The position numbers were made by a program, and so were the translations under genes. This document shows positions 2,198 through 51,128 of a stretch of 63,492 nt of DNA, piece by piece (position 1 is the stretch's first letter; every line of letters starts with the position of its first letter). Source of the DNA: an uncultured Clostridia bacterium (GTDB lineage Bacteria; Bacillota; Clostridia; Christensenellales; UBA1242); contig CALBHW010000025.1 of assembly GCA_937893125.1 (NCBI GenBank), positions 1 through 63,492 on the forward strand, in the 5' to 3' direction. A model generated the notes under the pieces. It saw only the letters and a program-made list of their open reading frames with translations. It ran no database searches and was not told the DNA's origin.

Positions 2198-2211
2198 GTT
2201 TGCATAGTACT
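2198..2211. repeat. Third copy of GTTTGCATAGTACT
   Basis: Exact 14-nt match to the 2056/2077 repeats. It directly abuts the terminator hairpin at 2213-2242. Confidence 0.8.
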
Positions 2212-2212
2212 A

Positions 2213-2242
2213 AAAAATCTTCCCGCGTTGTGGAAGATTTTT
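2213..2242 (-). terminator. Rho-independent terminator after the 2247-3143 gene
   Basis: AAAAATCTTCC-cgcgttgt-GGAAGATTTTT hairpin. On the minus strand it is followed by a U-run, 5 nt after the stop codon. Confidence 0.7.
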
Positions 2243-2246
2243 AAAT

Positions 2247-3143
2247 TTATAACAATTTAGTCATATAATGAATGTAATTTATCACACGAGAATATGTGAG
2301 TTTTGCAAAACTAAAAGTATTTAAAGCGCCCCCATCAAAAGATACAAATGACAAGACATCGCAATTTTCTAGAAAATTTACTGATTTGCAAAAACATTCT
2401 ACAATATCATTTCCTGTCATTAGGGAGTCTGGGATATTATAAACTATCAATTCAATAAAATATTTGTTTAGGTCACTTCCCATTGCCCACTTATTTACAA
2501 GGATTGTCTTTCGAATATTTTTAAAAATTCTAACAAGTTTTTTATAATTTCCATTTGTACGAGCATCTTTTTGTTCCATATTCTCATTATAAGTAAACAA
2601 ATCTATTGGACGAATACATTTTTGCATTGGATCCCAGAAATTTAGCATTGCTTTATCATCCAAATCATTAAATGTCGCCAAACGGATAAGAATTTTAAAG
2701 CCATATTCTTGCAAACACAAGATTTTAATTCCGTCATTATTTAGCAAAATATAAGTTGTCGGATTAAAATGAGTCGCTAAGACATTAGAAAAATCAACTA
2801 TAAACTGGTCTAAAGTACCCGCATTAGACACTTTTTCGCGCTGTTTTTGCGTTTTTGCTTTTGAAAGGTTTTTTAAAAAAGAAGAATTGTTAAAGATTAG
2901 TTGCGAATTGTGCGATGCAATTACGATTTCTAGTTCCCCGTTTTCATCAATAAAAGTCTCGTTTGTATAGTCGCCCATCGGGAAAATTCTCGTTGTTTCA
3001 GGCGTAAAAAGGTCTTTATAGACCGCTTGCTCAACAATTTCGTCCAGCGCAGACGTAACAATAGAAAGTGCAGTCATATAAAATTCCTGCACTCTTGTTT
3101 TATCAACCTTATTTGCAAAATTTTCTATTAAACTTCTTTCCAT
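2247..3143 (-). CDS. Hypothetical protein with a Pol-beta-type nucleotidyltransferase-like pattern (SMODS/CD-NTase-like, degenerate)
   Basis: 298-aa ORF starting 12 nt after the serS stop. FPMGDY-x10-GELEIVI fits hG[GS]-x9-13-[DE]h[DE]h, but with G-D and E-x-E. The C-terminal NYKKLVRIFKNIRK...YFIELIVYNIP resembles the helical half of OAS/CD-NTase-like enzymes. Pattern-level only. Confidence 0.45.
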   Translation of the reverse strand: MERSLIENFANKVDKTRVQEFYMTALSIVTSALDEIVEQAVYKDLFTPETTRIFPMGDYTNETFIDENGELEIVIASHNSQLIFNNSSFLKNLSKAKTQKQREKVSNAGTLDQFIVDFSNVLATHFNPTTYILLNNDGIKILCLQEYGFKILIRLATFNDLDDKAMLNFWDPMQKCIRPIDLFTYNENMEQKDARTNGNYKKLVRIFKNIRKTILVNKWAMGSDLNKYFIELIVYNIPDSLMTGNDIVECFCKSVNFLENCDVLSFVSFDGGALNTFSFAKLTYSRVINYIHYMTKLL

Positions 3144-3154
3144 CGCAACTTTTC

Positions 3155-4441
3155 TTATTTTTGAATAGGTCTAATAACTTCAAGTCCGCCCATATATTTT
3201 CTCAATACTTCTGGCACGGTAACGCTCCCATCTGCATTTTGGAATTGCTCCACGATTGCAGGAAGAAGCCTTGATGTAGCAAGACCGCTAGCATTTAAAG
3301 TATGCACAAAATCGGTCTTTTTAGTCTCAGAATCCCTATAACGAGTGTTGTTTCTTCTTGCTTGATAATCGCCAGCATTTGAAGCCGACGAAACTTCCTT
3401 ATAAATTCCCATACTTGGAATCCAAACTTCAATATCATAGGTTCTTTTCATCGAAGCTGAGCAATCACCCGCAGCGAGTTTTGACACTTGATAATGAAGT
3501 CCAAGCTTACTAACAAGTCGTTCCGCCTTTTCAACCAACTCCTCAAACGCTTTCCCGCTATTTTCCGGAGTCGTATATTGAACCATCTCGATTTTATTAA
3601 ACTGATGTCCACGAATCATCCCGCGCTCTTCTTGCCTATAACTTCCCGCTTCCCTTCTATAGCAAGGCGTGTACGCAAAAAATTTCATTGGCAATTTCTC
3701 TTGCGGAATAATCTCATTTTTATACATATTTACAAGCACAGTTTCAGCGGTTGGCAACAAAAATTTAGATTTTTCGTCCTTTTTGTCAATCCAATAAACT
3801 TCGTCCACGAATTTTGGGAATTGCCCCGAACCGACACCGCATTCATAGCCTAGCATATGAGGTGGTAAAATAAACTCATAACCATCTTTAAGATGTTCTT
3901 CTACAAAGAAATTAAGAAGTGCCCATTCAAGTTGAGCTCCGACACCGCGATAAATCCACGCGCCGTTCCCAGCGAGTTTAACACCCCTATCGTAGTCGAT
4001 AAGTCCTAAATCCGTGCATAAATCAACATGATTTTTTATTTTAAAACTAAATTCAGGCTTTTTATTTCCCTGCCTAATAACTCTATTATTTTCCTTTCCA
4101 CCGCCGAGCAAATCCTCGTCTGGCACATTTGGCAAAACAATTAAAAAGTCGTAAATTTTCTTTTCCACATCGGCAAGTTTTTTATCCAAATTTTCGATTT
4201 GAGATCCAAGAGCCTTCATTTCTTCGAAAATCGCAGAAGTATCATGTCCTTCCTTTTTAAGTTTTGGAATTTCGGCGCTAACTTTATTCTTTTTAGCCTT
4301 CAACGCTTCAACTTCGCCAATAATTTTTCTTCTCTCTTCATCCCATGCAATTACAGGCGCAAAATCGACTTCACAGCCCTTTTTAAGCAATAATTCTTCT
4401 ATTTTTTTTGAGTTGTTTTTTATAAGTTCAATAGAAATCAT
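3155..4441 (-). CDS. serS: Seryl-tRNA synthetase
   Basis: 428 aa with an N-terminal coiled-coil arm and class II motifs (TPCYRREAGS, GLATSR). AAGGAG RBS upstream. Confidence 0.95.
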   Translation of the reverse strand: MISIELIKNNSKKIEELLLKKGCEVDFAPVIAWDEERRKIIGEVEALKAKKNKVSAEIPKLKKEGHDTSAIFEEMKALGSQIENLDKKLADVEKKIYDFLIVLPNVPDEDLLGGGKENNRVIRQGNKKPEFSFKIKNHVDLCTDLGLIDYDRGVKLAGNGAWIYRGVGAQLEWALLNFFVEEHLKDGYEFILPPHMLGYECGVGSGQFPKFVDEVYWIDKKDEKSKFLLPTAETVLVNMYKNEIIPQEKLPMKFFAYTPCYRREAGSYRQEERGMIRGHQFNKIEMVQYTTPENSGKAFEELVEKAERLVSKLGLHYQVSKLAAGDCSASMKRTYDIEVWIPSMGIYKEVSSASNAGDYQARRNNTRYRDSETKKTDFVHTLNASGLATSRLLPAIVEQFQNADGSVTVPEVLRKYMGGLEVIRPIQK

Positions 4442-4539
4442 TTTTTTCTCCTTAATTTCACCCTATTATACAATAGTCTTGCAAAACTAGTCAACTTTTG
4501 TTTGCAAATTTTGTCGTCAATTGCTAAAATATTTGTGAA

Positions 4540-6260: not shown

Positions 6261-6317
6261 ACAAAAACCGCCTTATTTTTTTACTAAAACATTTATAACA
6301 TAAGAGCATAAATTTGT

Positions 6318-6331
6318 CAAACATTTGTTCG
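6318..6331 (-). promoter_or_regulatory. LexA (Cheo/SOS) box upstream of lexA
   Basis: The minus strand reads CGAACAAATGTTTG against the Firmicute consensus CGAAC-N4-GTTCG (one mismatch). It lies 58-71 nt upstream of the lexA start. Confidence 0.6.
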
Positions 6332-6380
6332 ATAAAGTCAAAAAATTTTAAAGGTTGTGAGAAAAAAAACATATAAATGG

Positions 6381-6409
6381 TTGACATTGTGTCCAGTTTT
6401 AAATATAAT
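6381..6409 (+). promoter_or_regulatory. Sigma-A type promoter for tRNA-Trp
   Basis: TTGACA (6381-6386), a 17-nt spacer, then TATAAT (6404-6409), about 29 nt before the tRNA. Confidence 0.6.
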
Positions 6410-6437
6410 GTTTAGGTAAATTGAAATTGACGAATAT

Positions 6438-6511
6438 AGGGGAATAGTTCAAGGGTAGAGCTATGGTCTCCAAAACCATCGATGAGGGTTCGAATCCTTC
6501 TTCCCCTGCCA
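6438..6511 (+). tRNA. tRNA-Trp (anticodon CCA)
   Basis: Hand-folded cloverleaf: acceptor AGGGGAA/TTCCCCT, anticodon stem ATGGT/ACCAT, loop CTCCAAA, T-arm GAGGG-TTCGAAT-CCTTC, encoded CCA. 74 nt. Confidence 0.9.
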
Positions 6512-6545
6512 AACAAAAACAAAGACCGCAAGGTCTTTTTTTGTT
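6491..6545 (+). repeat. Direct repeat copy 1 (tRNA-Trp T-loop to 3' end, plus terminator)
   Basis: CGAATCCTTCTTCCCCTGCCAAACAAAAACAAAGACCGCAAGGTCTTTTTTTGTT. It recurs at 6701-6754 with one substitution and one 1-nt indel. Confidence 0.9.
6521..6543 (+). terminator. Terminator after tRNA-Trp
   Basis: AAAGACC-gcaa-GGTCTTT followed by a T-run. Confidence 0.7.
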
Positions 6546-6700
6546 AGCAAGGGGTTAGAAGGGCTCGAACGGAGCGTTAAGAAAATATGATTTTTATCAT
6601 ATTTTTAGCGAGTGGCGTGATAGCCTTGTAATAAAATTCTTTACTTTTGCATAATTTAATGACGAGAAAAAACTATTTGTTTTTTATGCTTATGGCGGAG

Positions 6701-6754
6701 CGAATCCTTCTTCCCCTGCCAAGCAAAACAAAGACCGCAAGGTCTTTTTTTGTT
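6701..6754 (+). repeat. Direct repeat copy 2 (orphan tRNA-Trp 3' fragment plus terminator copy; att-like scar)
   Basis: CGAATCCTTCTTCCCCTGCCAAGCAAAACAAAGACCGCAAGGTCTTTTTTTGTT. There is no 5' half of a tRNA upstream of it. Confidence 0.85.
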
Positions 6755-6767
6755 TGCATGAGAAAAA

Positions 6768-6816
6768 GGCGACCGCTTGTGTTGCCAGTCAATTCTGACG
6801 CCAACTCACGACCGCC
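6768..6816 (+). repeat. Left copy of an inverted 46-49-bp repeat (partner at 12327-12372)
   Basis: GGCGACCGC...ACGCCAACTCACGACCGCC. The reverse complement of 12327-12372 reads GGCGACCGC...ACGCCAACTCGCGACCGCC. Matches are 9/9 at one end and 18/19 at the other; the middle has diverged. Confidence 0.7.
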
Positions 6817-6870
6817 TTTTTAGTACAATAAGTTCTATTCACTACTTAATCAATTAAGTTACCTAATTGT

Positions 6871-7047
6871 ACTACCCCCTCGGTCTCTACGAGACCACTC
6901 CCCCTTACGCGTCGAGCCAAGCCCTTAAACTCAGATTGCTTCCGCAATCATTCGAACAGCGGGCTGTCTCTCCTTTTCCCCAAAAATTTCGTAAAGCACA
7001 CGCTTTACTGCTATTTTCGGGGACCCCACTTCCGACAAAGGGGTAGT
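6871..7047 (-). repeat. GC-rich structured repeat element, copy A (candidate ncRNA or MITE-like element)
   Basis: 177 nt, alignable with 8339-8516. Identical blocks include ACTCCCCCTTACGCGTCGAGCCA and CTCTCCTTTTCCCCAAAAATTTCGTAAAGC. Several hairpins carry compensatory changes. An A.C mismatch on the plus strand (6982/7018) becomes G.U on the minus strand. Confidence 0.65.
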
Positions 7048-7084
7048 GAAATCGGCTTACCTAGAATAAGCATAAATTGTAAAC

Positions 7085-8272
7085 TCACTTTGCTAAATCT
7101 TTTGGGAGACGCTGGAAGGCGCGCTGGGCGGATTCGAGTTTTGATTTCTCTTGTGTGTAATATTCCGCTATGGCGGTTGGGTCGTCGCCACGTTTAAAGC
7201 GCTCTTGACATTCCCTATTAACTTCAAGTAGTCGGCGGTTATTTCTTAGGAGCATTTCCTTTCTCAAACAATACTTTTGCACACTATTTGGTGCCGTGCC
7301 GTCCGCCCAAAGAAGTTTGATGTATTCTAGCCTATCGTCTGGGTCGGCTTGTGCCAAAATTTTGTATTTTGAACGCTTATCCATATAAAGTCCCACATTG
7401 TTTTTTACGCAAATTGGGTCGGTTATTTTGCGCTTTTCTTCAATGCAATCAAGTTGCAATTTCCTAATTTGAAGTTCCCTTGCAACATCATAAAAAATGG
7501 TTAGTCCAAGTAAAATCATCGGCACAAGAAGTCCAAGCGCCACCGCTGGTGACGAAACCGTCTCCGACAAACTAGCGATTGAATTTGCGAACCCCGAATC
7601 CGTATGAATGCCTAAAACAACATTTTCAGACACCATATAAGCGTCGTCTTGAAGATTGGACGACCCATAAGTTTTAAACCACCTTACCCCGTCGTCGTCT
7701 TGATACACATCGCGCACTTTATGGAATACAAGCATAGAATTTGCATTCGACGCTTGCTTAATTTCACTATTCTTAAACCCCAAAAAAGTCGAAATAGAGC
7801 GGTCATAAGAAGTTGCGCCTATGTCGTCGTCTTTTACGCGCACGCAACTATTAACATCAAACTTGGTATAACTCCCACCCCAAACATAAAAGGCAATTTT
7901 GTCGCCCCGTTTAATGGTCTTTGTGTTAACACTTCGAATAACAACACTGTCACCAACATTAAAACCGTCATTTGACATACTCGCTGATACAAGCGTAAAT
8001 TTGGAATATCCCATAAAAGACGCTGGCACATTTTGCACGCGACTGTTTAGCACCATTACACCTAAAAGTAGCGTAAGCGCAACCAAAATCCCGCTCAATG
8101 CACACACAACAACTTGTGCAACCTTACCCGCAACACTCTTTGGCTCTTTCAAAAAGTTTTCATTAACTTTTCTCTTCTTCTCATACTTTTTGAGCAAATC
8201 ACTCGCCTTGCGCTCCATTGCCTTTTGAACGGATTTGTCTTCAACTATGTTTACATTTACCATGTCGGACAT
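7085..8272 (-). CDS. SipW-like (archaeal/ER-type, S26B) signal peptidase I with long cytoplasmic N- and C-terminal extensions
   Basis: VSASMSN...GDSVVI...IKRGDKIAFY...VFHKV...WFKTYGSSNLQDD parallels B. subtilis SipW (SGSMEP...GDVITF...THRIV...KTKGDNN..D). A second TM (AVALGLLVPMILLGLTIFY) sits where SipW has one. The AAGGAG RBS favours the ATG at 8272 over the ORF-track start at 8278. Confidence 0.65.
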   Translation of the reverse strand: MSDMVNVNIVEDKSVQKAMERKASDLLKKYEKKRKVNENFLKEPKSVAGKVAQVVVCALSGILVALTLLLGVMVLNSRVQNVPASFMGYSKFTLVSASMSNDGFNVGDSVVIRSVNTKTIKRGDKIAFYVWGGSYTKFDVNSCVRVKDDDIGATSYDRSISTFLGFKNSEIKQASNANSMLVFHKVRDVYQDDDGVRWFKTYGSSNLQDDAYMVSENVVLGIHTDSGFANSIASLSETVSSPAVALGLLVPMILLGLTIFYDVARELQIRKLQLDCIEEKRKITDPICVKNNVGLYMDKRSKYKILAQADPDDRLEYIKLLWADGTAPNSVQKYCLRKEMLLRNNRRLLEVNRECQERFKRGDDPTAIAEYYTQEKSKLESAQRAFQRLPKDLAK

Positions 8273-8338
8273 AATCATACTCCTTTTAATAAGATTGGTT
8301 TGCTTATTTGATTATAGTCAAATAGTGATAATTGTTGG

Positions 8339-8516
8339 GCTACCCTCTCCCCCCTTCGGGGTACTCCCCCTTACGCGTCGAGCCACGCCCGCTTGTTCGG
8401 GTTGCTATCGCAACCACTCAACTTATGGGCGGGCTCTCCTTTTCCCCAAAAATTTCGTAAAGCGTATGCTTTACTGCTATTTTTGGGGACCCCTTTCTTG
8501 GTGCCAAGGGGGTAGT
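8339..8516 (-). repeat. GC-rich structured repeat element, copy B
   Basis: 178 nt with the same architecture as copy A. It lies 8 nt after the stop of the 222-aa gene and about 60 nt before the signal peptidase start. Confidence 0.65.
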
Positions 8517-8523
8517 AAATTTA

Positions 8524-9192
8524 TTACTCCACAACTGTCGCACCGCCGATGGTGTCGGAGTTGGCAAGTGACCAGTTAAGGCTCGCGTCACCTAAACTTT
8601 CGTAAACTGCCCCAGTGTACAATTTGTCAATTTCTACAAGAATATAAAAATATGCACTATTCCCAGCATATACAAGTTGCGATAGCGTAGACTCTGTCGT
8701 CGACCCTTGCGTTTTAATCGTGCTTGCTCCGTCAATCATTGTCGCAAACGACAACTCAGTCCCCGACGCATAATACCATACATTTACATTTGACTTGTTC
8801 GACGCGTCAGCAACCGTAACAAGCAAATCGTGTCCCCCGCTTGGATTATTATTAGTAAATTTGTATGTAAACAAAGCATAAGAATTACTTTTACTTAGCG
8901 CGACCGATTGTGGCGTTTGCAAAGTCGCAGTCGTACTCGATTGCTCCAATCCAAATTTTACACTCGTTGTCTTGCCGTCCGCGCCAACTAAATTTGTCTT
9001 TTCTATATTTGCTTCCGTTTGATATACGGCACTCGCTGTCGCATTAACATGTACCGCGTTGTACCTAATAACTAAGTTGCTCGACACACCTTGCGTCGAC
9101 GCAGATAAAACTATCACAACTGTCATCACTGACACCGCGACTACACATACTAGCGTAAATATTGATAATACAATTTTTCTTGTTGATGACAT
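8524..9192 (-). CDS. Small secreted or membrane-anchored protein of unknown function (leader related to that of the DGR target)
   Basis: 222 aa with an N-terminal hydrophobic segment followed by SASTQG...VIRYNA. The target protein has WGATQM...EITYSA at the same place. The remainder is Ser/Thr/Asn-rich and looks beta-rich. Confidence 0.7.
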   Translation of the reverse strand: MSSTRKIVLSIFTLVCVVAVSVMTVVIVLSASTQGVSSNLVIRYNAVHVNATASAVYQTEANIEKTNLVGADGKTTSVKFGLEQSSTTATLQTPQSVALSKSNSYALFTYKFTNNNPSGGHDLLVTVADASNKSNVNVWYYASGTELSFATMIDGASTIKTQGSTTESTLSQLVYAGNSAYFYILVEIDKLYTGAVYESLGDASLNWSLANSDTIGGATVVE

Positions 9193-9458
9193 AATTTACA
9201 TCCTTTTGTGTGGAATTTTTTTTATTTCAACTTTCTATCTTATTCTTACTCCCCCTTGTAAGGGGGAGTAAAAACTGAAATTAGTTTCTACTAGGGTTCC
9301 CTTCACCGTTTTTTGTATATCCCTTTATTTTTAAAAATTTTCGACCCCCTTAGGGGGGGTATATTTTTAAAGTGGTCGTCACTTATGTTTAAGTGGGGCT
9401 TGGGATTTTTTCGTTTATTGCAGGCGTGGTAGCCTGCACGAAAAAAAGCCTTCGCCCC

Positions 9459-9480
9459 CTGGGGGATCTTAATCCCCCAG
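9459..9480 (-). other. GC hairpin immediately 3' of the VR (DGR retrohoming-type hairpin/cruciform)
   Basis: The minus strand reads CTGGGGGAT-TAAG-ATCCCCCAG: a 9-bp stem and 4-nt loop, about 10 nt past the end of TR/VR homology and 5 nt past the stop codon. Confidence 0.65.
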
Positions 9481-9484
9481 CCCC

Positions 9485-11863
9485 CTAGCTAGAGATAAGG
9501 GAAGGACGAAAGCCGATACCAACAAGCGTATGCGCTAGAGCATTGTCAACACATATACAGAACAGCCCAGCATCGTAACCGCTATTAACAGTACCACCGC
9601 GCAGGACACCATAAATGTAATCGGTTGACGTATTAACCCAATAGTAATCGCATCGTCCAGTTGTAGCGCTTCCGTCAGAACCAGCACTTGTAGGCACGCC
9701 TACAAGTTGCTCCAAAGCGCCTTCAGAGACGATGTTAGAAGTCCCGTTGTAACGAGACTTATATCCCCCTTCCGTTGGAAGGGTGTAAGACAATTCGACA
9801 TAATTTCTATCTTTTAAATCCGCTTTTTTGTTTGCATATTCGCCCGAATAGGAGTTAAAAAGCCAATTTGAGCCGTTAAAATCGTCAAAATTGACGAACA
9901 TATGCATACTTGTTCCGCCATTTGAGACGACGGCTTGACCAAACGACCATTCCCACACATTGCCCCAAGGGTTGCAAATTCCTAGGCAAAACACGCTTGA
10001 ATATCTATCCGTCCCCACAAAGCCGTCAGAAAGAACGCGTCTAGTGACGCTTGAGCCACTGGAAGCGATATTTTTGACCATAAATTGTGAAGAATAGAGT
10101 CCCGTTGGGTCGGAGCCGTTGCTGAGAGAGTTTGTGTTCGTGTAATTATAGGAAAAGCCGTAAGACAAGGTAGAATTTGAATAAGTTGTGACTGTTCCGC
10201 CTGGTTTTTCGGATTCATAATATCTTGCGTAATCTGTTCTATCGGCGTATTGGCTATTTGCGTCATAGTTCCAAGTACAGCCATAGCCGACCATTTCTTG
10301 AGAGTTATTGTTTGCATATTTTACAAGGTACAAAAGGTCGTAAGCGTACATTTTCCAATTTTCGCCTTGGACGCCCTTAACCTTTTTATATGACGACGCA
10401 AGGCTACTAGAATTCCACCTATTAGTCAAAGTTGTCATATAAGATTGCATAGTTTGTTGGTTAGTTGAGTTGCCTTTTACGCCCGCGGTGTCGGAATATC
10501 CCGACCAATTGTTAAGCGCGTAATTTATGCTACCACTTGTCAAAGGTCCCGCTTCGAAAGTTGCGATATAAGAGCGTGGGACATCTGATGTAGTTTTGTC
10601 TGGGTTAAAGAGGGTTGCTTCAAAAGTTGCAAGGTAAAACTCGTCAATTTTTACGCTACCCGTGAAGAATTTGTCTGACAAACTTTGCCATTGTCTATCC
10701 CCGACCACCCAACGGCGAAGGTACATAGTAGGATAATATGTGTAGCAGTCGACAGCGGAAAAGGTCGTTTGTGCAGTCAATTTTCTACCGCTTGCGAGTG
10801 TTCTTCCCGCTGGCAAGGTTACGCTTCTTCCAAACCATTCAAAAGGATATGTCGGGTCGGACAACTTCCCTATTATTTCGCCCGTTGCTAAGTCGACATT
10901 AACAATGTCAATGTCTTTATAGACGACCGCGTCAAGGTAGTCGTCTTGTCCATAAGTGATATTTGGGTTGCCCAAACTATTTTTATTTTGCAAGAAGCCC
11001 GCGATGTTGCTTAGACTTGTTTCGTTAACCTTTGTTGCAGTTGCGTTTAGGGTTGCGTTGTAACCATATTTTGTCCAACTAGGGTCAGTTTGGTCAATGT
11101 CTTGATAAATACTTAAAATGTCGTTTGAAGTGTATTGAATATCTGCCATAAAGGAGACTGAGACGACGAAAGAAGTCGACTCTACTTGCCAAACGGACGA
11201 ATCATATGTTGAGTTTAATTTAATTGAGACTTTTATAACATAAGTGTCGTTTTGGTCGATGCTTGAATTGCTTTGGAAAGCAGTCAAGGTGCTATTTGAC
11301 ACATAGCCTTTAACTGCTGAGACATAGGAAGTTGCGCTGTAATTTGGTTTCATAGCAAGCAAGTCGCTCATACCTTCTGTGTAGTTATAATAATATTGGT
11401 CGGTTATGAAGTCTAGATACGATACATTTGGCGAGATTGTAACATTAGGCAAAATATATCTATCTCCGATATTTTTGATGAAGACCATAAGTTCAATTGA
11501 TTTACTTGTATCTTCGAGCGGGAAAGTCCCCAAATCGCAAGTAATGCCCGAGAGTTCGTTCTCTTTCCCCGACACGGTGTAGACATTGTCATTTGACGAC
11601 CCGCTCCCACCCGTCATTGTCATCCACGAAGCGTTACCCGCAGTCGAGCCAGAATTAAGGGAGTATGTTCCCCAAATTTTGGCACCGATTTCGGTCGCAG
11701 AATATGTAATTTCGCCTTGCATTCTAAGATACATTTGGGTTGCGCCCCAAATCTCAGCGGTTGCAATAAAACCGATGACAAATGCTAATATAAAAAATAA
11801 TACTGATTTTGCTCTTCTCACCCTTGTTTCCACAGACTTTTTCCCTAACCTTTTAAAGTACAA
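9485..11863 (-). CDS. DGR variable (target) protein: N-terminal leader/TM plus C-terminal FGE-sulfatase/C-type-lectin-fold domain carrying the VR
   Basis: 792 aa with a TTG start (GTG alternatives 27-39 nt downstream). The GNVWEW motif and the terminal ...GGTVNSGYDAGLFCICVDNALAHTLVGIGFRPSLISS match the CLec-fold VR pattern. The last 120 nt are the VR. Confidence 0.9.
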   Translation of the reverse strand: MYFKRLGKKSVETRVRRAKSVLFFILAFVIGFIATAEIWGATQMYLRMQGEITYSATEIGAKIWGTYSLNSGSTAGNASWMTMTGGSGSSNDNVYTVSGKENELSGITCDLGTFPLEDTSKSIELMVFIKNIGDRYILPNVTISPNVSYLDFITDQYYYNYTEGMSDLLAMKPNYSATSYVSAVKGYVSNSTLTAFQSNSSIDQNDTYVIKVSIKLNSTYDSSVWQVESTSFVVSVSFMADIQYTSNDILSIYQDIDQTDPSWTKYGYNATLNATATKVNETSLSNIAGFLQNKNSLGNPNITYGQDDYLDAVVYKDIDIVNVDLATGEIIGKLSDPTYPFEWFGRSVTLPAGRTLASGRKLTAQTTFSAVDCYTYYPTMYLRRWVVGDRQWQSLSDKFFTGSVKIDEFYLATFEATLFNPDKTTSDVPRSYIATFEAGPLTSGSINYALNNWSGYSDTAGVKGNSTNQQTMQSYMTTLTNRWNSSSLASSYKKVKGVQGENWKMYAYDLLYLVKYANNNSQEMVGYGCTWNYDANSQYADRTDYARYYESEKPGGTVTTYSNSTLSYGFSYNYTNTNSLSNGSDPTGLYSSQFMVKNIASSGSSVTRRVLSDGFVGTDRYSSVFCLGICNPWGNVWEWSFGQAVVSNGGTSMHMFVNFDDFNGSNWLFNSYSGEYANKKADLKDRNYVELSYTLPTEGGYKSRYNGTSNIVSEGALEQLVGVPTSAGSDGSATTGRCDYYWVNTSTDYIYGVLRGGTVNSGYDAGLFCICVDNALAHTLVGIGFRPSLISS
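9491..9610 (-). repeat. DGR variable repeat (VR)
   Basis: Aligns without gaps to 13588-13707. There are 23 mismatches, all at positions where TR has A on the coding (minus) strand: 20 in the core and 3 at the 3' edge. Confidence 0.92.
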
Positions 11864-12026
11864 TTATACTTACTACACTATATTTTACCTATTTGTCACC
11901 CCCGTGTCAATAAATTATATCCCAAATATACATAATACCCATTGTCAATTTAATCAAGTGAAATTGAGTAGGGGTAATGATTGGGGCTTGGTTGTATATA
12001 AATATCAAGTAATACTATCGGTTGGA

Positions 12027-12070
12027 CTACCCTATCCCCCCTTCGGGGTACTTCCCCTTACAAGGGGAAG
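12027..12070 (-). repeat. Truncated copy C of the structured repeat element
   Basis: ACTACCCTATCCCCCCTTCGGGGTACTTCCCCTTAC matches the first ~35 nt of copy B (33/35). It then joins directly to AAGGGGAAGCAAATTTATTA, which is related to the 3' end and flank of B, so the ~130-nt core is missing. Confidence 0.7.
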
Positions 12071-12326
12071 CAAATTTATTATATTGTTTAAGGCTCCCTT
12101 ATAAGGGGCAATAATCATACAACAAGTTACTTTCTTACTTCCCCTTACAAGGGGAAGCCTACTCCAATTGGCTTCTTACCCACTCTCCATTGTAAGGGGA
12201 AGCCTACTTAAACTTTTTTTTATTTACCCCCCTTATGACAAAGGGGGGTGGCGCGGTTAGCGTCGGAGGGATAGTAAAACTAAAGAACATTACTAATTGG
12301 GTGGTGAAATGAGATGGTTGAACTGG

Positions 12327-12372
12327 GGCGGTCGCGAGTTGGCGTTCGAAGAACAGTCTACTCGCGGTCGCC
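12327..12372 (-). repeat. Right copy of the inverted 46-49-bp repeat; itself a 12-bp hairpin
   Basis: GGCGGTCGCGAG-N22-CTCGCGGTCGCC, 11 nt after the RT stop codon. See 6768-6816. Confidence 0.7.
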
Positions 12373-12383
12373 TACAAGATACT

Positions 12384-13490
12384 CTATTCGACTTGCTGAA
12401 GAGCAATGCGCAAGGCTTCTTTCTCCGCTTTATTACGCAATTTATCGTGACGACTTATCGTAAAACGGCACTGCCCTACATTCACATATGGTTGCAAGTA
12501 TTTTAGATAAAATCTATTTCCGCTTGTTACTTTAATTCGCGCACTATAACTCATTATTGCGCTTGAATCGCGCGCGGTGAGATAATCCTTCTTATAAATC
12601 TTTCTAATGCGTCTAACGGCGCGCAAAAAGGTTTTTGACCGCATAGTAATATAGTTGCGATAAAATTTATATCCCAAAAAGTCGAGCGGGCGTCCACTTC
12701 CCTTTTTATCCGCGATTTTAAACACTTGCCAATTAGGTTTAATTGTCAAATGCTCATTATTTAGATATTTCTCAATTTCTTTTTGCCACTTACCTAATTT
12801 TCTCTTATTTGGTGAAAAGAAAACCATATCGTCCATATATCTAATATAGTGCGGAATTTTAAGTTGTTCTTTGACATAATGGTCGAAGTCTTGCAAGTAA
12901 AAATTGGCAAACCACTGACTAGTGTAGTTGCCGATTGGGACGCCCGACGGGACGGAACGGACGATAATTTTTATTAAATTTAATGTTTTTTGGTCTTTTA
13001 TAATGGTTTCAAACTTTTTAAGTAGCAAATCTTGGTCAATGCTTGGATAAAATTTGCGAACATCGCATATAAGGCAATATTTTGTGTTTCGCGGGTCGTT
13101 TTTTAACCATTTTTGAACCGTTTTAATACCATATGACGCGCCCCGATTGTCGACAGACGCGCAACAATAGTCATACATCCCGCGCATTAAAATAGGCTTA
13201 ATAACGAGCATTAGCGCCCATTGGACAATTTGGTCGGGGTAAAATTTGGGAATAAAAATTTCACGGATTTTGCCCGTGCATTTATCGTTTATAATTTTTG
13301 AAGAATATTTCATCGGCTTATACTTTTCGCGGAACAAAAGGTCGTGTAAAAGGGCGAGTTTTTGCTCTATATCACCCATAAAACGCTTTACATTCACTCT
13401 TTTACGCTTTCCCTTTGACGCGCAACGCGACGCCACTCTAAGGGTCGATAAGTCGATAATTTCATCATATAAATCTTTTACTCTTTTCAT
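12384..13490 (-). CDS. DGR reverse transcriptase
   Basis: 368 aa. Motif 4 PIGNYTSQWFANFYL (the [ILV]GxxxSQ of DGR RTs, in place of the QGxxxSP of group II/retron RTs). Motif 5 YIRYMDDMVFF. No maturase/endonuclease domains. AAGGGA RBS. The TR lies 98 nt upstream. Confidence 0.93.
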   Translation of the reverse strand: MKRVKDLYDEIIDLSTLRVASRCASKGKRKRVNVKRFMGDIEQKLALLHDLLFREKYKPMKYSSKIINDKCTGKIREIFIPKFYPDQIVQWALMLVIKPILMRGMYDYCCASVDNRGASYGIKTVQKWLKNDPRNTKYCLICDVRKFYPSIDQDLLLKKFETIIKDQKTLNLIKIIVRSVPSGVPIGNYTSQWFANFYLQDFDHYVKEQLKIPHYIRYMDDMVFFSPNKRKLGKWQKEIEKYLNNEHLTIKPNWQVFKIADKKGSGRPLDFLGYKFYRNYITMRSKTFLRAVRRIRKIYKKDYLTARDSSAIMSYSARIKVTSGNRFYLKYLQPYVNVGQCRFTISRHDKLRNKAEKEALRIALQQVE

Positions 13491-13587
13491 TGTGTCCCTT
13501 ATAATGTCTATCGGCGTTTCGGTCTCCTACTAAGCCAATTCTCTTGCGACAAATTTTTAGCGTATGCTACGGATAAAAGGTTGCTAA

Positions 13588-13707
13588 ATTTATAAGGGAA
13601 GGACGAAAGCCGATATTAACATTTGTATTCGTTAGATTATTGTTAACATTTATATAGAACAGCCCAGCATTGTTATTGTTATTTACATTACCACCGCGCA
13701 GGACACC
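13588..13707 (-). repeat. DGR template repeat (TR)
   Basis: The coding-sense translation GVLRGGNVNNNNNAGLFYINVNNNLTNTNVNIGFRPSLI is AAY-codon rich. It is not part of any ORF. It is the only other copy of the VR sequence that I could find by eye. Confidence 0.92.
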
Positions 13708-13853
13708 CCACATAAAACGAAGAAAATGGCTCGGAGAGCAACCAAATACCCATTTATATTATACCCCACACTTCCCTTTGTCCCCTAATAAATTTCTTGT
13801 CTACTTTTGTCTATTTTCGTCGAAGATTGACAAATTAAAAGGAAAAATAAAAA

Positions 13854-13902
13854 GGGCGGTCATATGCAAGCGTCCGAATGGACAGTTTGCGTATGGTCGC
13901 CC
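13854..13902 (-). terminator. Rho-independent terminator of rny
   Basis: Long hairpin GGGCGACCATACGCAA...TTGCATATGACCGCCC on the minus strand followed by a U-run, 19 nt after the rny stop. Confidence 0.75.
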
Positions 13903-13920
13903 GTAAAAATATTTGTTAAA

Positions 13921-15474
13921 TTATTTTGCTACATCAGTTGCGCGAGTTTCTCTAATGACATTAACTTTAATTTGACCAGGATATTGAAGTTCATTTTCAA
14001 TTTTTCTTGCAATATCTTTTGCAAGGAAAACGATGCTTTTATCGTCAACTTCTTCAGGCTTAACCATAATTCTGATTTCTCTACCCGCTTGAATAGCATA
14101 AGATTTTTCAACGCCCTTAAAACTATTTGCGATATTTTCAAGATTTTCAAGTCTCTTAATGTATGCGTCAAGGAGTTCTCTTCTAGCACCAGGTCTACTA
14201 CTTGAAATTGCGTCCGCCGTTTGAACGATAATTGCTTCAAGCGACCTAAACTCGACATCGCCGTGGTGCGCTTCAATACAGTGGATGACTTCTGGCGATT
14301 CCTTGTACTTTTTCGCCAAATCAACACCAATTGAAACGTGAGTACCTTCTTGTTCATGGTCAAGAGCCTTACCTATATCGTGCAAAAGCCCCGCGCGTTT
14401 TGCTACACGCACATTTGCGCCAAGTTCGCTAGCGAGAAGCCCCGCCAAATGGCACACTTCAAGGCTGTGTTTAAGCACATTTTGCCCATAACTTGTCCTA
14501 AATTTAAGTCTACCTAGAATCTTAACAAGTTCAGGGTGCATATTCATAATTCCCGACTCATAAACAGCGTTTTCACCCGCTTCTTTAATAACCGCATCGA
14601 CATCTCGTTGCGCTTTTTCGACAATTTCTTCAATGCGTGCTGGATGAATACGCCCATCCATAATAAGTTTTTCAAGCGCTACACGCGCGATTTCCCTTCT
14701 ATATGGGTCAAATCCCGACAAAACAACCGCTTCTGGCGTGTCGTCAATTATAAGGTCAACGCCCGTCGCATTTTCAATTGCACGAATATTTCGGCCTTCT
14801 CGACCAATAATTCTTCCCTTTAATTCGTCATTTGGGAGCGGAACAACAGTCACTGTAATTTCGCTTGTAATATTTGTTGCGCATTTTTGGACAGCCAAAG
14901 TCACAATCTCACGCGCTTTTTTCTCCGCCGTGTCAACTGCTTCTTCTTCCATTTGCCTTATCGTCTGCGCGCAGTCCATTTTTGCTTCGTCTACATAACG
15001 GTCGATAAGTTGTTTTTTTGCTTCCTCTTTTGTTATTCCAGACACTTTTTCAAGCGCTTGGGTTATTTTTTCGCTTTCTTTGTCTACTTCCTTTTTTGCT
15101 TCTTCAAGTTCCGTTTCTCTTTGCTTTAAATTATCAATCATAACGTCCAAGGATTCCGCTTTTTTATCCAAGGTTTCTTCCTTGCGTTGCAAAGATTCTT
15201 CTTTCATTGTAAGCCTGTTTTCTGATTTCGAAATCTCGTTGTAACGCTCGGCTATCTCTGCGTCACATTTTTCTTTGAGCGAATGGATTTCTTCTTTCGC
15301 TTCCAAAATTGCTTCTTTTTTTGCTGTTTTAGCCTCAGCATAGGCATTTTCTAAGATTTTAGTCGCATTGTTTCTTGATTGTGATGCTTTTTTTGATATT
15401 AAAAAATATGTTGCGCCTGTTCCAGCTCCAATACTTAAAACACAAGCGACTAAAAACCAAACTATTGGTATCAT
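13921..15474 (-). CDS. rny: Ribonuclease Y
   Basis: 517 aa with an N-terminal TM, a coiled coil, a KH domain ([13 protein letters not shown]) and an HD domain (LLHDIGKA). Confidence 0.93.
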
Positions 15475-34110: not shown

Positions 34111-34166
34111 CCCCCTTTTTAAGGGGGCGCAAAAAGTGCGTGAGAAAATCTCGCGCACTTTTAAAT
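34111..34166 (-). terminator. Tandem terminator hairpins after the pseudouridine synthase gene
   Basis: On the minus strand: AAAAGTGCGCGAG-attttc-TCACGCACTTTTT, then GCGCCCCCTT-aaaa-AGGGGGCGC. Confidence 0.6.
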
Positions 34167-49529: not shown

Positions 49530-51128
49530 ATGAATGAAAAAAAGATGCAATCATATGACAAATATACATACGACAAAAAAGTAAAGATTAAAGGTATTAT
49601 AAAAACCGCAATGATTGTTGTGGCAGCGGCAAGTTTGACGCTTACATCATACACACTTTTTACATCTAAAAAGAGTGCCGAAAAAGCAAACGAAAAAAAG
49701 CCAGCTGTTGAGCTTGTTCAAAACGAACAAGTAAACTTTGTTGCGCCTACAAAGCTCGTTATGGAACAAAAGAGCACCGAGATGGAAACAATCGGACATA
49801 TGCAAGCAATGACAGACAGCCTTAAAGAAGAAATCAAAGATCAAAGTGCTAAAACTTCAAACGAAATCTCAAGTCTCAAAGAAGATGTTTCTTCTTATGC
49901 TTCGCAAGTCCAAGAAAACAATTCAAAGTTAGACCAACTTGGCAAAAATGTAGACGCTCTTCACGGCGATGTTTCTTCCCTTGGCAACAATGTAAACGCT
50001 CTTCATAGCGACGTCTCTTCACTTGGTTCAAATGTAGATGCACTTCACGGCGACGTCTCTTCTCTTGGCGACAATGTCAGCAACATTGAAAACAAAGTAG
50101 AAGAATATCAATCGACGCTTGACAATAAAGTTGAAGAAGCAGTTAGAAAAATTGAAGAAAACAGACGAATTGAACTTGAAGCAAAACAAGCACAAGAAGT
50201 TCAAGACGCAACTACCCCAGTTGCCGAAGCTGAAGAAAATATTGTAGTAGAACCTATTGTTCAAGAAGAAACGCAAAATGTTGATTTTGAAGTTGCTCCA
50301 ACAGATATTGAAGCGCCAGTCGAAGCGGAAGAAAATCTTGAACAACCTGTTGAAGAAGCGGAACAAATTGTTGAAACAGAACAACCTGCAGTTGAACCAA
50401 CAGAAGAAGTTGCCGAAGAAAAATCAAAGCTCGCTTCGTCCACAATTGACCATTTTAAGAGAGAGTCAAGTTCAACTCACGCGGTTGATACAGGCGTTTC
50501 TTATAAGGATAGCACTTTAGCGGCGGCTGCCCTTTACAACAACATCATTACAACAAAAGAAAATGGTCAAGATGTCAGTTCTCTTGGAATTTATGGCGGT
50601 GTCGCATATGCAAACGGCAATTTAAAAACAAATTCTGTTGACTTAACTGCTGGCGCGATGTATAAAACAAAAACTGACAAAGGGCTCGTTACTTCGGTTG
50701 GCGGACAATTTACATCTTCTATCAACCCTAAGGCAGAAATTTCTCCAACAATTGAAATCAATGCTGGGCTTGGAAACATCAAAGTCGGCAAAAATGCGAC
50801 TCTTGATATTAACGCAGGATTTATGGCTGGTGGTTCAAATAGCGATAATTCCCCTTCTGGAAAAGTTACGGGAAGAATCTCTTGGGGCTCAAACTCATCT
50901 CAACTTAGTGACGATGTCAGGCTTTATGAGTTAAAGGATAAAATCAACAATGTTATTGAAAATGCAACTGCAAATAACAAAAAGTTTGCTAATATAAAAA
51001 ATGCAATCCAAACCCCTGATAATCCAACCCCTAATCCAACCCCTAACCCTAACCCTAACCCTACCCCAGAAACGGGTGCGCTCACACCAAATACTGACCA
51101 TCCAGAAACACCAGAATTTAATTTCTAA
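49530..51128 (+). CDS. Membrane-anchored repeat protein (coiled-coil 14-aa repeats, acidic linker, C-terminal Pro-Asn-Pro-Thr tail)
   Basis: 532 aa with an AAGGGG RBS and an N-terminal TM. Contains (LGxNVxALHxDVSS)x3.5, a Glu-rich segment and PNPTPNPTPNPNPNPTP. Confidence 0.7.
   Translation: MNEKKMQSYDKYTYDKKVKIKGIIKTAMIVVAAASLTLTSYTLFTSKKSAEKANEKKPAVELVQNEQVNFVAPTKLVMEQKSTEMETIGHMQAMTDSLKEEIKDQSAKTSNEISSLKEDVSSYASQVQENNSKLDQLGKNVDALHGDVSSLGNNVNALHSDVSSLGSNVDALHGDVSSLGDNVSNIENKVEEYQSTLDNKVEEAVRKIEENRRIELEAKQAQEVQDATTPVAEAEENIVVEPIVQEETQNVDFEVAPTDIEAPVEAEENLEQPVEEAEQIVETEQPAVEPTEEVAEEKSKLASSTIDHFKRESSSTHAVDTGVSYKDSTLAAAALYNNIITTKENGQDVSSLGIYGGVAYANGNLKTNSVDLTAGAMYKTKTDKGLVTSVGGQFTSSINPKAEISPTIEINAGLGNIKVGKNATLDINAGFMAGGSNSDNSPSGKVTGRISWGSNSSQLSDDVRLYELKDKINNVIENATANNKKFANIKNAIQTPDNPTPNPTPNPNPNPTPETGALTPNTDHPETPEFNF
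49938..50080 (+). repeat. 42-bp in-frame tandem repeat, about 3.4 units
   Basis: Units at 49938-49979, 49980-50021 and 50022-50063, plus a partial fourth. Confidence 0.85.

Follow-up and report, generated by a model that had tools for sequence, protein, structure and literature searches.

A covarying structured module common to Clostridia and Candidate Phyla Radiation bacteria, a candidate mobile element with two copies in a diversity-generating retroelement island

The contig analysed here (hereinafter the window: 63,492 nt, CALBHW010000025.1 of assembly GCA_937893125.1, from an uncultured Clostridia bacterium) carries two homologous GC-rich elements, A and B, in the non-coding parts of an operon associated with a diversity-generating retroelement (DGR). 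Each contains a core module belonging to a large family whose fold was conserved and covarying and whose members spanned phyla, including gut and rumen Clostridia and bacteria of the Candidate Phyla Radiation (CPR). We put at about one in two (roughly 0.5) the probability that A and B descend from a structured mobile element, non-autonomous and site-selective, of which they are two diverged copies and whose constraint acts on a single strand.

Elements A and B and the module family

Both elements had been proposed in an initial annotation of the sequence; they proved real, and every block and hairpin quoted there was recovered in place (Table 1). A repeat search of the window aligned 6897-7027 with 8363-8493 as a gapless 131-nt pair with 81% identity, and the 18-mer CCCCTTACGCGTCGAGCC, common to A and B, occurred exactly twice in the window against 0.00 expected. 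On the minus strand, the core of both elements was 120 nt long and consisted, from the 5' end, of GGGGUCCCC, hairpin P1, UUUUGGGGAAAAGGAG, long hairpin P2, and CGACG. As had been claimed, the differences between A and B kept the pairing, with base-pair swaps at the apex and base of P2. The apical hairpin of P2 was GAUUGC-GGAA-GCAAUC in A and GGUUGC-GAUA-GCAACC in B, where A-U was replaced by G-C, and the base helix of P2 contained an A-U to C-G swap with the same bulged nucleotide (U on the minus strand). At the 3' side, a different hairpin occupied the same position in each element (GGUCUC-GUA-GAGACC in A, CCCC-GAA-GGGG in B), and both were paired. Folding of A and B on both strands was far better than that of shuffled sequences (z -5.1 to -7.5; 0/200 shuffles).

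An exact genome scan for CCCCTTACGCGTCGAGCC returned one true match (L004), in addition to eight chance matches in high-GC genomes, and this single relative revealed the conserved blocks. Family scans used the 3' blocks CTCCTTTTCCCCAAAA ... GGGGACCCC and later a slightly relaxed pattern; they returned 11, then 8, and with the relaxed pattern 69 loci, reaching Clostridia, Peribacteria, Gracilibacteria, Doudnabacteria, Saccharibacteria, and one OP3-type metagenome-assembled genome (MAG). A two-block 5' pattern gave no match in metagenome or viral contigs, and the module was absent from the viral contigs scanned (zero in three scans). A covariance model (R1), built from a sequence-only alignment of 37 diverse copies (A3), identified 100 copies at 77 loci; the family comprises at least 100 copies, with gut/rumen Clostridia and CPR bacteria as hosts. 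Clostridia genomes carried many copies each, belonging to several subfamilies and in part arranged in tandem arrays. In the window, A and B matched R1 with 80 bits (E 3e-17) and 81 bits (E 1.5e-17), respectively, and no other significant match was found there.

The family consensus, given as the window's minus strand, measured ~115-120 nt and read 5' GGG(G/C)UCCC, P1, UUUUGGG(G/A)AAAAGGAG, P2, CGACG. P1 was an A/U-rich stem with a variable top. P2 was a hairpin, long and variable, in which purine-rich internal loops were conserved. In A3, 96.1% of the consensus-structure cells paired, compared with ~50% when the partners were slid, and the covariation score was 0.487 against 0.157 in shuffles (0/500). 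In the model-fitted alignment (A4), 97.1% of cells paired and double changes occurred at 13 of 19 pairs. The copies were therefore not the many dispersed repeats devoid of covariation that the initial annotation had associated with a plain miniature inverted-repeat transposable element (MITE); covariation was strong. The invariant GGAG and CGAC, reached from P1 through an AAAA(A) linker, closed P2 as G-C, G.A, A.G, G-C (the two G-C pairs: 93/95 and 86/92), an arrangement that would resemble a K-turn-like three-way junction. A small open reading frame (ORF) after AAAAGGAG was also considered, and was rejected because neither a start codon nor a frame was conserved.

The initial annotation had favoured the minus (gene) strand as the functional one, and this was borne out. 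The P1 position that differs between A and B reads as G.U on the minus strand, against A.C on the plus; across the family (A4), one P1 pair was G.U in 56 copies and A-U in 38. Further, the minus-type strand (hereafter the named strand) had the more stable fold of the two strands in all but one of 70 unique copies (69/70), with a mean difference of -7.2 kcal/mol. On the named strand, P1 was followed by GGGAAAAAGGAG and P2 by CGACG, and no U-tract came directly after either hairpin.

The earlier statement that no known class could be matched also held: cmscan against Rfam 15, whose families cover riboswitches, ribozymes, leaders, small RNAs, ROOL/GOLLD, raiA, 6S, SRP, and RNase P, gave no match to A or B at gathering or permissive thresholds. 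At the gathering threshold, the whole window yielded four tRNAs and the RT-18 motif and nothing else, and the region 6300-14200 searched at E<=5 yielded noise only (at most 23 bits against thresholds of 39-100). No Rfam match was found at the element positions of eleven related loci, one CPR copy gave only noise at E<=10, the IS605-orfB and HEARO models had no match, and blastn of A against phage and plasmid records was negative. Keyword and sequence-string searches of the searchable literature, which for a human-microbiome structured-RNA survey comprised the first 200 supplementary files, contained no description of the module. Within Rfam 15 and that literature the module is thus undescribed, the closest in kind being structured intergenic repeats and miniature integrative elements. 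Three features set it apart from both: a core that crosses phyla, covariation, and an association with tRNA and tmRNA ends that is precise to the nucleotide. The earlier interpretation was supported in part; it had not included the core common to the family, the link with tRNA and tmRNA, or the DGR setting.

Insertion-like sites and the question of mobility

A third, partial relative (element C) was found in the window. It lacked the core, and had in common with B the flanking scaffold only (41 nt at 93% and 57 nt at 82% identity). In C, the hairpin CUUCCCCUUGUAAGGGGAAGU at 12050-12070 was intact, with arms CUUCCCCUU-GUAAGGGGAAG, and represented an "empty site"; two more copies of the same hairpin were present in C. 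In B, an extra 131 nt were flanked by the arms ...CCCCUU and GUAAGGGG..., and the same two arms form the C hairpin. B therefore looks like a 131-nt insertion into a hairpin loop that was left intact in C. At the position of B, the orthologous operons of loci L028-L034 had a spacer of 9-31 nt, in which R1 detected no module. A stand-alone hairpin of the type split by the core in A and B, ACUCCCCCUU-AC-AAGGGGGAGU, was also identified, and such C/G-tract hairpins were nearly restricted to 7.0-12.3 kb of the window. The intergenic regions 12020-12280 and 9340-9480 were dense in them (CCCCUU..AAGGGG), with three copies of CUUCCCCUU(A/G)(C/U)AAGGGGAAG in C, and outside the DGR-bearing island described below a single one was seen in 63 kb (position 34111).

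In other genomes, the CGACG end of the module lay within 0-4 nt of tRNA, tmRNA, or 5S ends. Antisense CCA ends of tRNA or tmRNA were located at the tail in at least 11 cases according to ARAGORN, and inspection by eye added about as many tmRNA-like ends. Sense 5' ends were located there in five cases, plus 5S, the genes being tRNA-Lys, -Ser, -Arg, -Ala, tmRNA, and 5S rRNA of CPR and OP3-type genomes. In some copies, tRNA 3' halves also abutted the CGACG end. At six loci (L087, L070, L065, L035, L060, and L085) the order was complete tRNA, terminator, element, and an exact duplicate of the tRNA 3' part (30-40 nt), and in L087, L060, L085, L065, and L035 the element contained an upstream 9-16-nt segment complementary to the adjacent tRNA part. 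Units beside ssrA/tRNA-Ala were flanked by a 7-nt direct repeat, TGGTGGA. Cores beside ssrA were 93-97% identical between MAGs, and the adjacent tmRNA genes 59-76% identical. Of the features downstream of the tail, 50 were on the opposite strand and 19 on the same one; the module therefore sits mostly at gene 3' ends and cannot be regarded as a 5' leader in general.

The duplicated tRNA 3' halves at L070 (~4240-4500) and L060/L085 (tRNA-Pro) were themselves cut at the T-stem/T-loop by unrelated inserts of ~60-190 nt, which would indicate repeated insertion at the same tRNA-derived sites. The CCA at the junctions was considered as a sign of an RNA intermediate and proved uninformative, since CCA was encoded in 50 of 50 tRNA genes of these loci.

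The tRNA junctions could also be read from the opposite strand, as tRNA-CCA, CGUCG, hairpin, and CUCCUUUUU, in which case the element would be a tRNA/tmRNA 3' trailer, terminator, or processing signal. In Clostridia, this strand is necessarily transcribed past the CCA end (at least 20 cases), P2 is followed on it by the U-rich CUCCUUUUU tract, and the element lies downstream of a gene on that strand in 72% of cases. Such a role is nevertheless quite unlikely: the opposite strand folded worse in 69 of 70 copies, since on it A.C and pyrimidine mismatches take the place of G.U and tandem G.A; CUCC precedes the U-tract; the hairpin is atypically long; and the elements of the window and of CPR genomes are oriented the other way relative to transcription. 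An intrinsic terminator on the better-folding strand was also rejected, as its hairpins lack a following U-tract and the element has a canonical terminator of its own downstream, both at A and in Borkfalkia.

If the module is mobile, a trans-acting enzyme would recognise the folded single strand (RNA or single-stranded DNA), and the structure would for this reason be conserved whatever the host transcription context. The element would favour hairpin loops and the ends of tRNA-like folds; A and B would have landed in the loops of local C/G-tract hairpins of the DGR-bearing island and would be passengers co-transcribed with the operon of the target, 222-aa, and SipW-like genes. Any effect on the operon mRNA would be secondary: the stable three-way junction predicted for GGAG/CGAC might expose the Shine-Dalgarno-like AAAAGGAG, and the two together could act as an exonuclease block or as a binding site for 30S subunits or a K-turn protein. 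We also considered a protein-less element of ~120-250 nt whose own folded single strand (RNA or cDNA/single-stranded DNA) would direct site-specific insertion at tRNA-like gene ends or loops, either because the element carries an "anti-target" segment that base-pairs with the target or by reverse-transcriptase template switching at mature RNA termini. This proposal is unlikely; were it true, the module would be a bacterial short interspersed element (SINE)-like or RNA-guided retroposon common to Clostridia and CPR bacteria.

The comparison with MITEs made in the initial annotation was partly upheld. As in classical MITEs, the module was multi-copy, non-coding without a conserved ORF, and present or absent between related loci, including absence from orthologous sites, and the window itself offered a filled/empty pair. 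Family-wide terminal inverted repeats were not found, the ends GGGSUCCC and CGACG not being inverted repeats, nor was a target-site duplication at A or B. Closing stems existed in some subfamilies only and were copy- or subfamily-specific. A general flanking inverted repeat (P0) was rejected, as it was significant in some subfamilies only and its median run of 8 nt equalled that of the shuffled control.

The lack of family-wide inverted repeats, and of target duplications at A and B, weighs against mobility, as do the following observations. No reverse transcriptase (RT), integrase (with one exception), IS200-type Y1 transposase, or TnpB-like ORF was found within ~4-8 kb of the copies, and the window had no such mobilising gene apart from the DGR RT. 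A phmmer search with IS200 TnpA found no match in ~600 kb of loci or in the window. The near-identical strains L026 and L027 carried identical elements, and the high core identity beside ssrA may stem from very strong selection instead of a recent spread. The invariance of the junction motifs across very distant phyla, the retention of the module in small, streamlined CPR genomes, and the covarying closing stems of one subfamily fit a host RNA at least as well.

The main rival is a non-mobile, host-functional family of structured RNA, acting as a small RNA or as a processing/stability module and copied by ordinary duplication. Examples would be an RNase P-released leader in CPR bacteria, a small RNA derived from the 3' untranslated region (UTR) in Borkfalkia, or a K-turn-type ribonucleoprotein. 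The single-stranded motifs are invariant while the helices covary across phyla, the closing stems of that one subfamily are perfectly paired despite differing sequences, and the tandem G.A motifs in GGAG/CGAC and P1 are typical of RNA tertiary modules. Copies in CPR genomes have a promoter-like box on one side and, on the other, the exact 5' end of tRNA-Lys, -Ser, -Arg, -Ala, tmRNA, or 5S, and must thus be transcribed as a leader; in Borkfalkia, a canonical terminator follows the element. However, no single transcription logic covers the family: in Clostridia, the named strand is antisense to the abutting tRNA or tmRNA and usually has neither a co-oriented upstream gene nor a convincing promoter. 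In addition, the downstream genes are unrelated, the module is absent from orthologous operons, copies are flanked by tRNA 3'-half duplications, and the core is far more conserved than the adjacent tmRNA. Taken as a whole, the host-RNA explanation is possible but somewhat improbable.

If the module is mobile, a small gene-less element hits tRNA and tmRNA ends with nucleotide precision in both gut Clostridia and ultra-small CPR bacteria, which would imply an unrecognised mobilisation route and provide a marker of gene flow between Clostridia and CPR. If it is a host RNA, it would be a widespread, uncatalogued structured RNA beside stable-RNA genes, in organisms for which almost no non-coding RNA (ncRNA) biology is known. 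Either way, a covariance model is ready for annotation, and the GC-rich "mystery" blocks between genes of low-GC gut MAGs, the present DGR operon included, are accounted for by the module.

The retroelement island and its genes

The window is part of a low-GC (~33%) bacterial chromosome; among its genes are those for ThiI, LexA, RNase Y, and a recombinase of the Xer type. An island with 42% GC lay between the RNase Y gene and a tRNA (6438-6508); its minus-strand order was template repeat (TR), RT-18 RNA, RT, C, a 792-aa gene ending in the variable repeat (VR), a 222-aa gene, B, a 397-aa gene, A, and terminator. All mismatches from TR to VR (20/20) were at TR adenines, which identified a genuine, complete DGR. 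The RT-18 Rfam motif between TR and RT scored 49 bits and is presumably the DGR spacer/priming RNA, and a GC hairpin (~9440-9480) followed VR. The 792-aa gene, previously called a peptidase, encodes the DGR target protein and showed no peptidase signal; the signal peptidase label given to the 397-aa gene came down to a weak, sub-threshold match to SipW-type signal peptidase I.

Table 1. Elements, genes, and retroelement parts located in the window.
Feature	Position	Strand	Remarks
Element A, whole	6871..7047	-	Closing arms, leader, core, 3' hairpin
A core module	6908..7027	-	GGGGUCCCC, P1, AAAAGGAG, P2, tail; model R1
A core P1	6977-7023	-	Inner hairpin 6991-7008
A core AAAAGGAG	6970-6977	-
A core P2	6914-6970	-	Apical hairpin 6934-6949
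A core tail CGACGCG	6908-6914	-
A 5' arm ACUACCCCUUUG	7036..7047	-
A proximal arm UAAGGGGGAGU	6897-6907	-	Possible partner of 5' arm
A distal arm GAGGGGGUAGU	6871-6881	-	Other possible partner of 5' arm
A hairpin P3	6882-6896	-	Between proximal and distal arms
Element B, whole	8339..8516	-	Intercistronic, between 222-aa gene (stop 8524) and 397-aa gene (start 8278)
B core module	8374..8493	-	Model R1
B core P1	8443-8489	-
B core AAAAGGAG	8436-8443	-
B core P2	8380-8436	-	Apical hairpin 8400-8415
B core tail	8374-8380	-
B-only insert	8375..8505	-	131 nt, 12-nt leader plus core; alignment of B with C
Element C	12020..12280	-	Between RT and target gene; coreless (model R1)
Terminator-like hairpin downstream of A	6763..6821	-	8-bp base with two G.U pairs, A5/U5 flanks; read from sequence
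Stand-alone hairpin	9248..9269		Type split by core in A and B
397-aa membrane protein gene	7085..8278	-	Last gene of conserved three-gene operon
792-aa DGR target gene	9485..11863	-
VR	9495-9610	-
RT	12384-13490	-
RT-18 RNA	13496-13569	-
TR	13592-13707	-

Element A belongs to the 3' UTR of the 397-aa gene and precedes the terminator of the operon. Hairpins related to the terminator-like one downstream of A were present beside C (12327-12372) and beside the L004 copy.

A, B, and the scaffold C all lie inside the DGR cassette, with C directly after the RT gene, and the module could thus be taken for an accessory RNA of the DGR, serving for example in RT recruitment or priming or in marking the target gene. 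This is extremely unlikely. The DGR already has its TR, the RT-18 spacer RNA, and the GC hairpin after VR. R1 and blastn found no module in the DGR relatives L010-L025 (RT 67-68% identical at the closest) or in the RT-linked orthologous operons L032-L034, and a plain terminator only was present downstream of the closest RT relative. Almost all other copies had no RT within several kilobases. By these comparisons, the module is not a specific part of the DGR. A retron ncRNA was likewise rejected, given that the sole RT here is the DGR RT with adenine-specific TR/VR, that A and B are downstream of this RT, and that elsewhere the module occurs in many copies with no RT.

The initial annotation had also pointed to a switch-like alternative fold. 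As a riboswitch or attenuator, the 5' C-rich arm would pair with either of the two G-rich arms and control the 397-aa gene; both pairings are energetically feasible, and B is located 60 nt upstream of the ribosome-binding site of that gene. However, the predicted preferences are opposite: A favours pairing with the distal arm (-75.8 kcal/mol, against -67.9 for the proximal), and B with the proximal (-88.5 against -78.8). Downstream of A lies a terminator and no gene; the arms, known from three sequences only, fall outside the core conserved in the family; and no U-tract follows P1 or P2 on the named strand. Since the downstream feature was co-oriented in 19 of 69 cases family-wide and the neighbouring genes were unrelated, a riboswitch or leader was rejected for the family, and a switch acting on the 397-aa gene is very unlikely.

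The three-gene operon was kept in many Clostridia MAGs, with or without RT. The trio (a protein of ~790 aa, one or two of ~185-220 aa, and one of ~395 aa that is weakly SipW-like) was observed in the window (7085-11863) and in L028-L034. It was sometimes linked to RT and integrase, and lay near the conjugative-element genes PcfJ, PcfK, and ArdA. The trio may be a secreted-protein assembly module that is diversified by DGRs.

At the island edge, the 3' end of the tRNA (6438-6508) and its terminator were duplicated ~210 nt downstream (6482-6549 and 6692-6758, 86-97% identity), and strain L026 had one further 208-nt tRNA-end unit; the arrangement is apparently an att-like tandem duplication. The island (~6.5-15.6 kb) was 98.5% identical to that of L026 and its flanks 85-91%, which suggests recent transfer or a sweep of the island. 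In L026 (4788-5895), the DGR RT was split into ORFs of 160 and 226 aa, apparently by a frameshift; it was intact in the window and in L027. Microviridae-type genes (Phage_F major capsid, scaffold, and replication initiator) were found at L026 17409-21194, a few kilobases from the region in this sister strain, and near the RT in the relatives L032/L033 (949-1977).

Elsewhere in the window, three tandem 42-nt repeats with 81-83% identity were detected at 49938-50063, probably within coding sequence. In addition, comparison with L026 (15344-16240) places a gene for a CBASS-like nucleotidyltransferase, having a CD-NTase C-terminal domain, at ~2200-3100 on the minus strand, beside seryl-tRNA synthetase.

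Comparison with known systems

With the 5' stabilisers of Firmicute mRNAs (5' hairpins and the cryIIIA STAB-SD), the module shares a stable hairpin with, directly after it, a strong but orphan Shine-Dalgarno-like AAAGGAG without a start codon. This likeness is a functional analogy only, and the module differs in being usually at 3' ends or antisense and in having the extra P2 and CGACG tail.

The strand-specific hairpins in place of terminal inverted repeats and the absence of target duplication at A and B recall IS200/IS605 elements and their miniature derivatives (palindrome-associated transposable elements, PATEs), including TnpB omega-RNA scaffolds. The fixed 3' boundary followed by a variable flank, and a presumed single-stranded intermediate tolerating G.T, are also features of IS200/IS605. 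Unlike these, the module had no TnpA or TnpB beside any copy and no constant 5' target tetranucleotide. Derivation from omega-RNA/TnpB or PATEs was rejected, as the upstream same-strand ORFs were unrelated housekeeping genes and no transposase was found.

Retroelement chimeras formed at RNA termini are represented by the Mauriceville plasmid-tRNA junctions and by eukaryotic SINEs. The module resembles them in having junctions exactly at mature RNA ends with 0-4 extra nt and in its head-to-tail arrays, but most of its copies have no linked RT, and two RNA polarities would be needed to account for both junction types.

As in integrative elements of tRNA and tmRNA genes and their gene-less derivatives (CIME-like, after cis-mobilisable elements), junctions occurred at the anticodon loop, the variable/T region, and the CCA end; the far side carried the tRNA 3' part in exact duplicate, and units beside ssrA had the TGGTGGA repeat. 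In contrast to these, the whole module insert is only ~165-250 nt, lacks an integrase, and is highly multi-copy; the module is also found at tRNA 5' ends and in non-tRNA hairpin loops, and it appears to be constrained as a folded single strand.

Repetitive extragenic palindromes and bacterial interspersed mosaic elements (REP/BIME) of enterobacteria, BOX/RUP of Streptococcus pneumoniae, and Correia/NEMIS of Neisseria are each confined to a species or genus. Like them, the module is short, non-coding, multi-copy, strongly folded, modular, and sometimes tandem, and is located mostly at gene 3' ends or between cistrons, where it is co-transcribed with host genes. Assignment to REP/BIME with a REP-associated tyrosine transposase (RAYT) was rejected, as no Y1 gene was present and the unit is 115-120 nt with two unlike hairpins and not a 20-40-nt palindrome. 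Unlike REP/BIME, BOX/RUP, and Correia repeats, it has no GTAG-plus-palindrome unit, conserved terminal inverted repeat, or TA duplication, and no RAYT/Y1 gene was found; its core is common to Clostridia, CPR, and OP3-type genomes, and it is precisely associated with tRNA and tmRNA ends.

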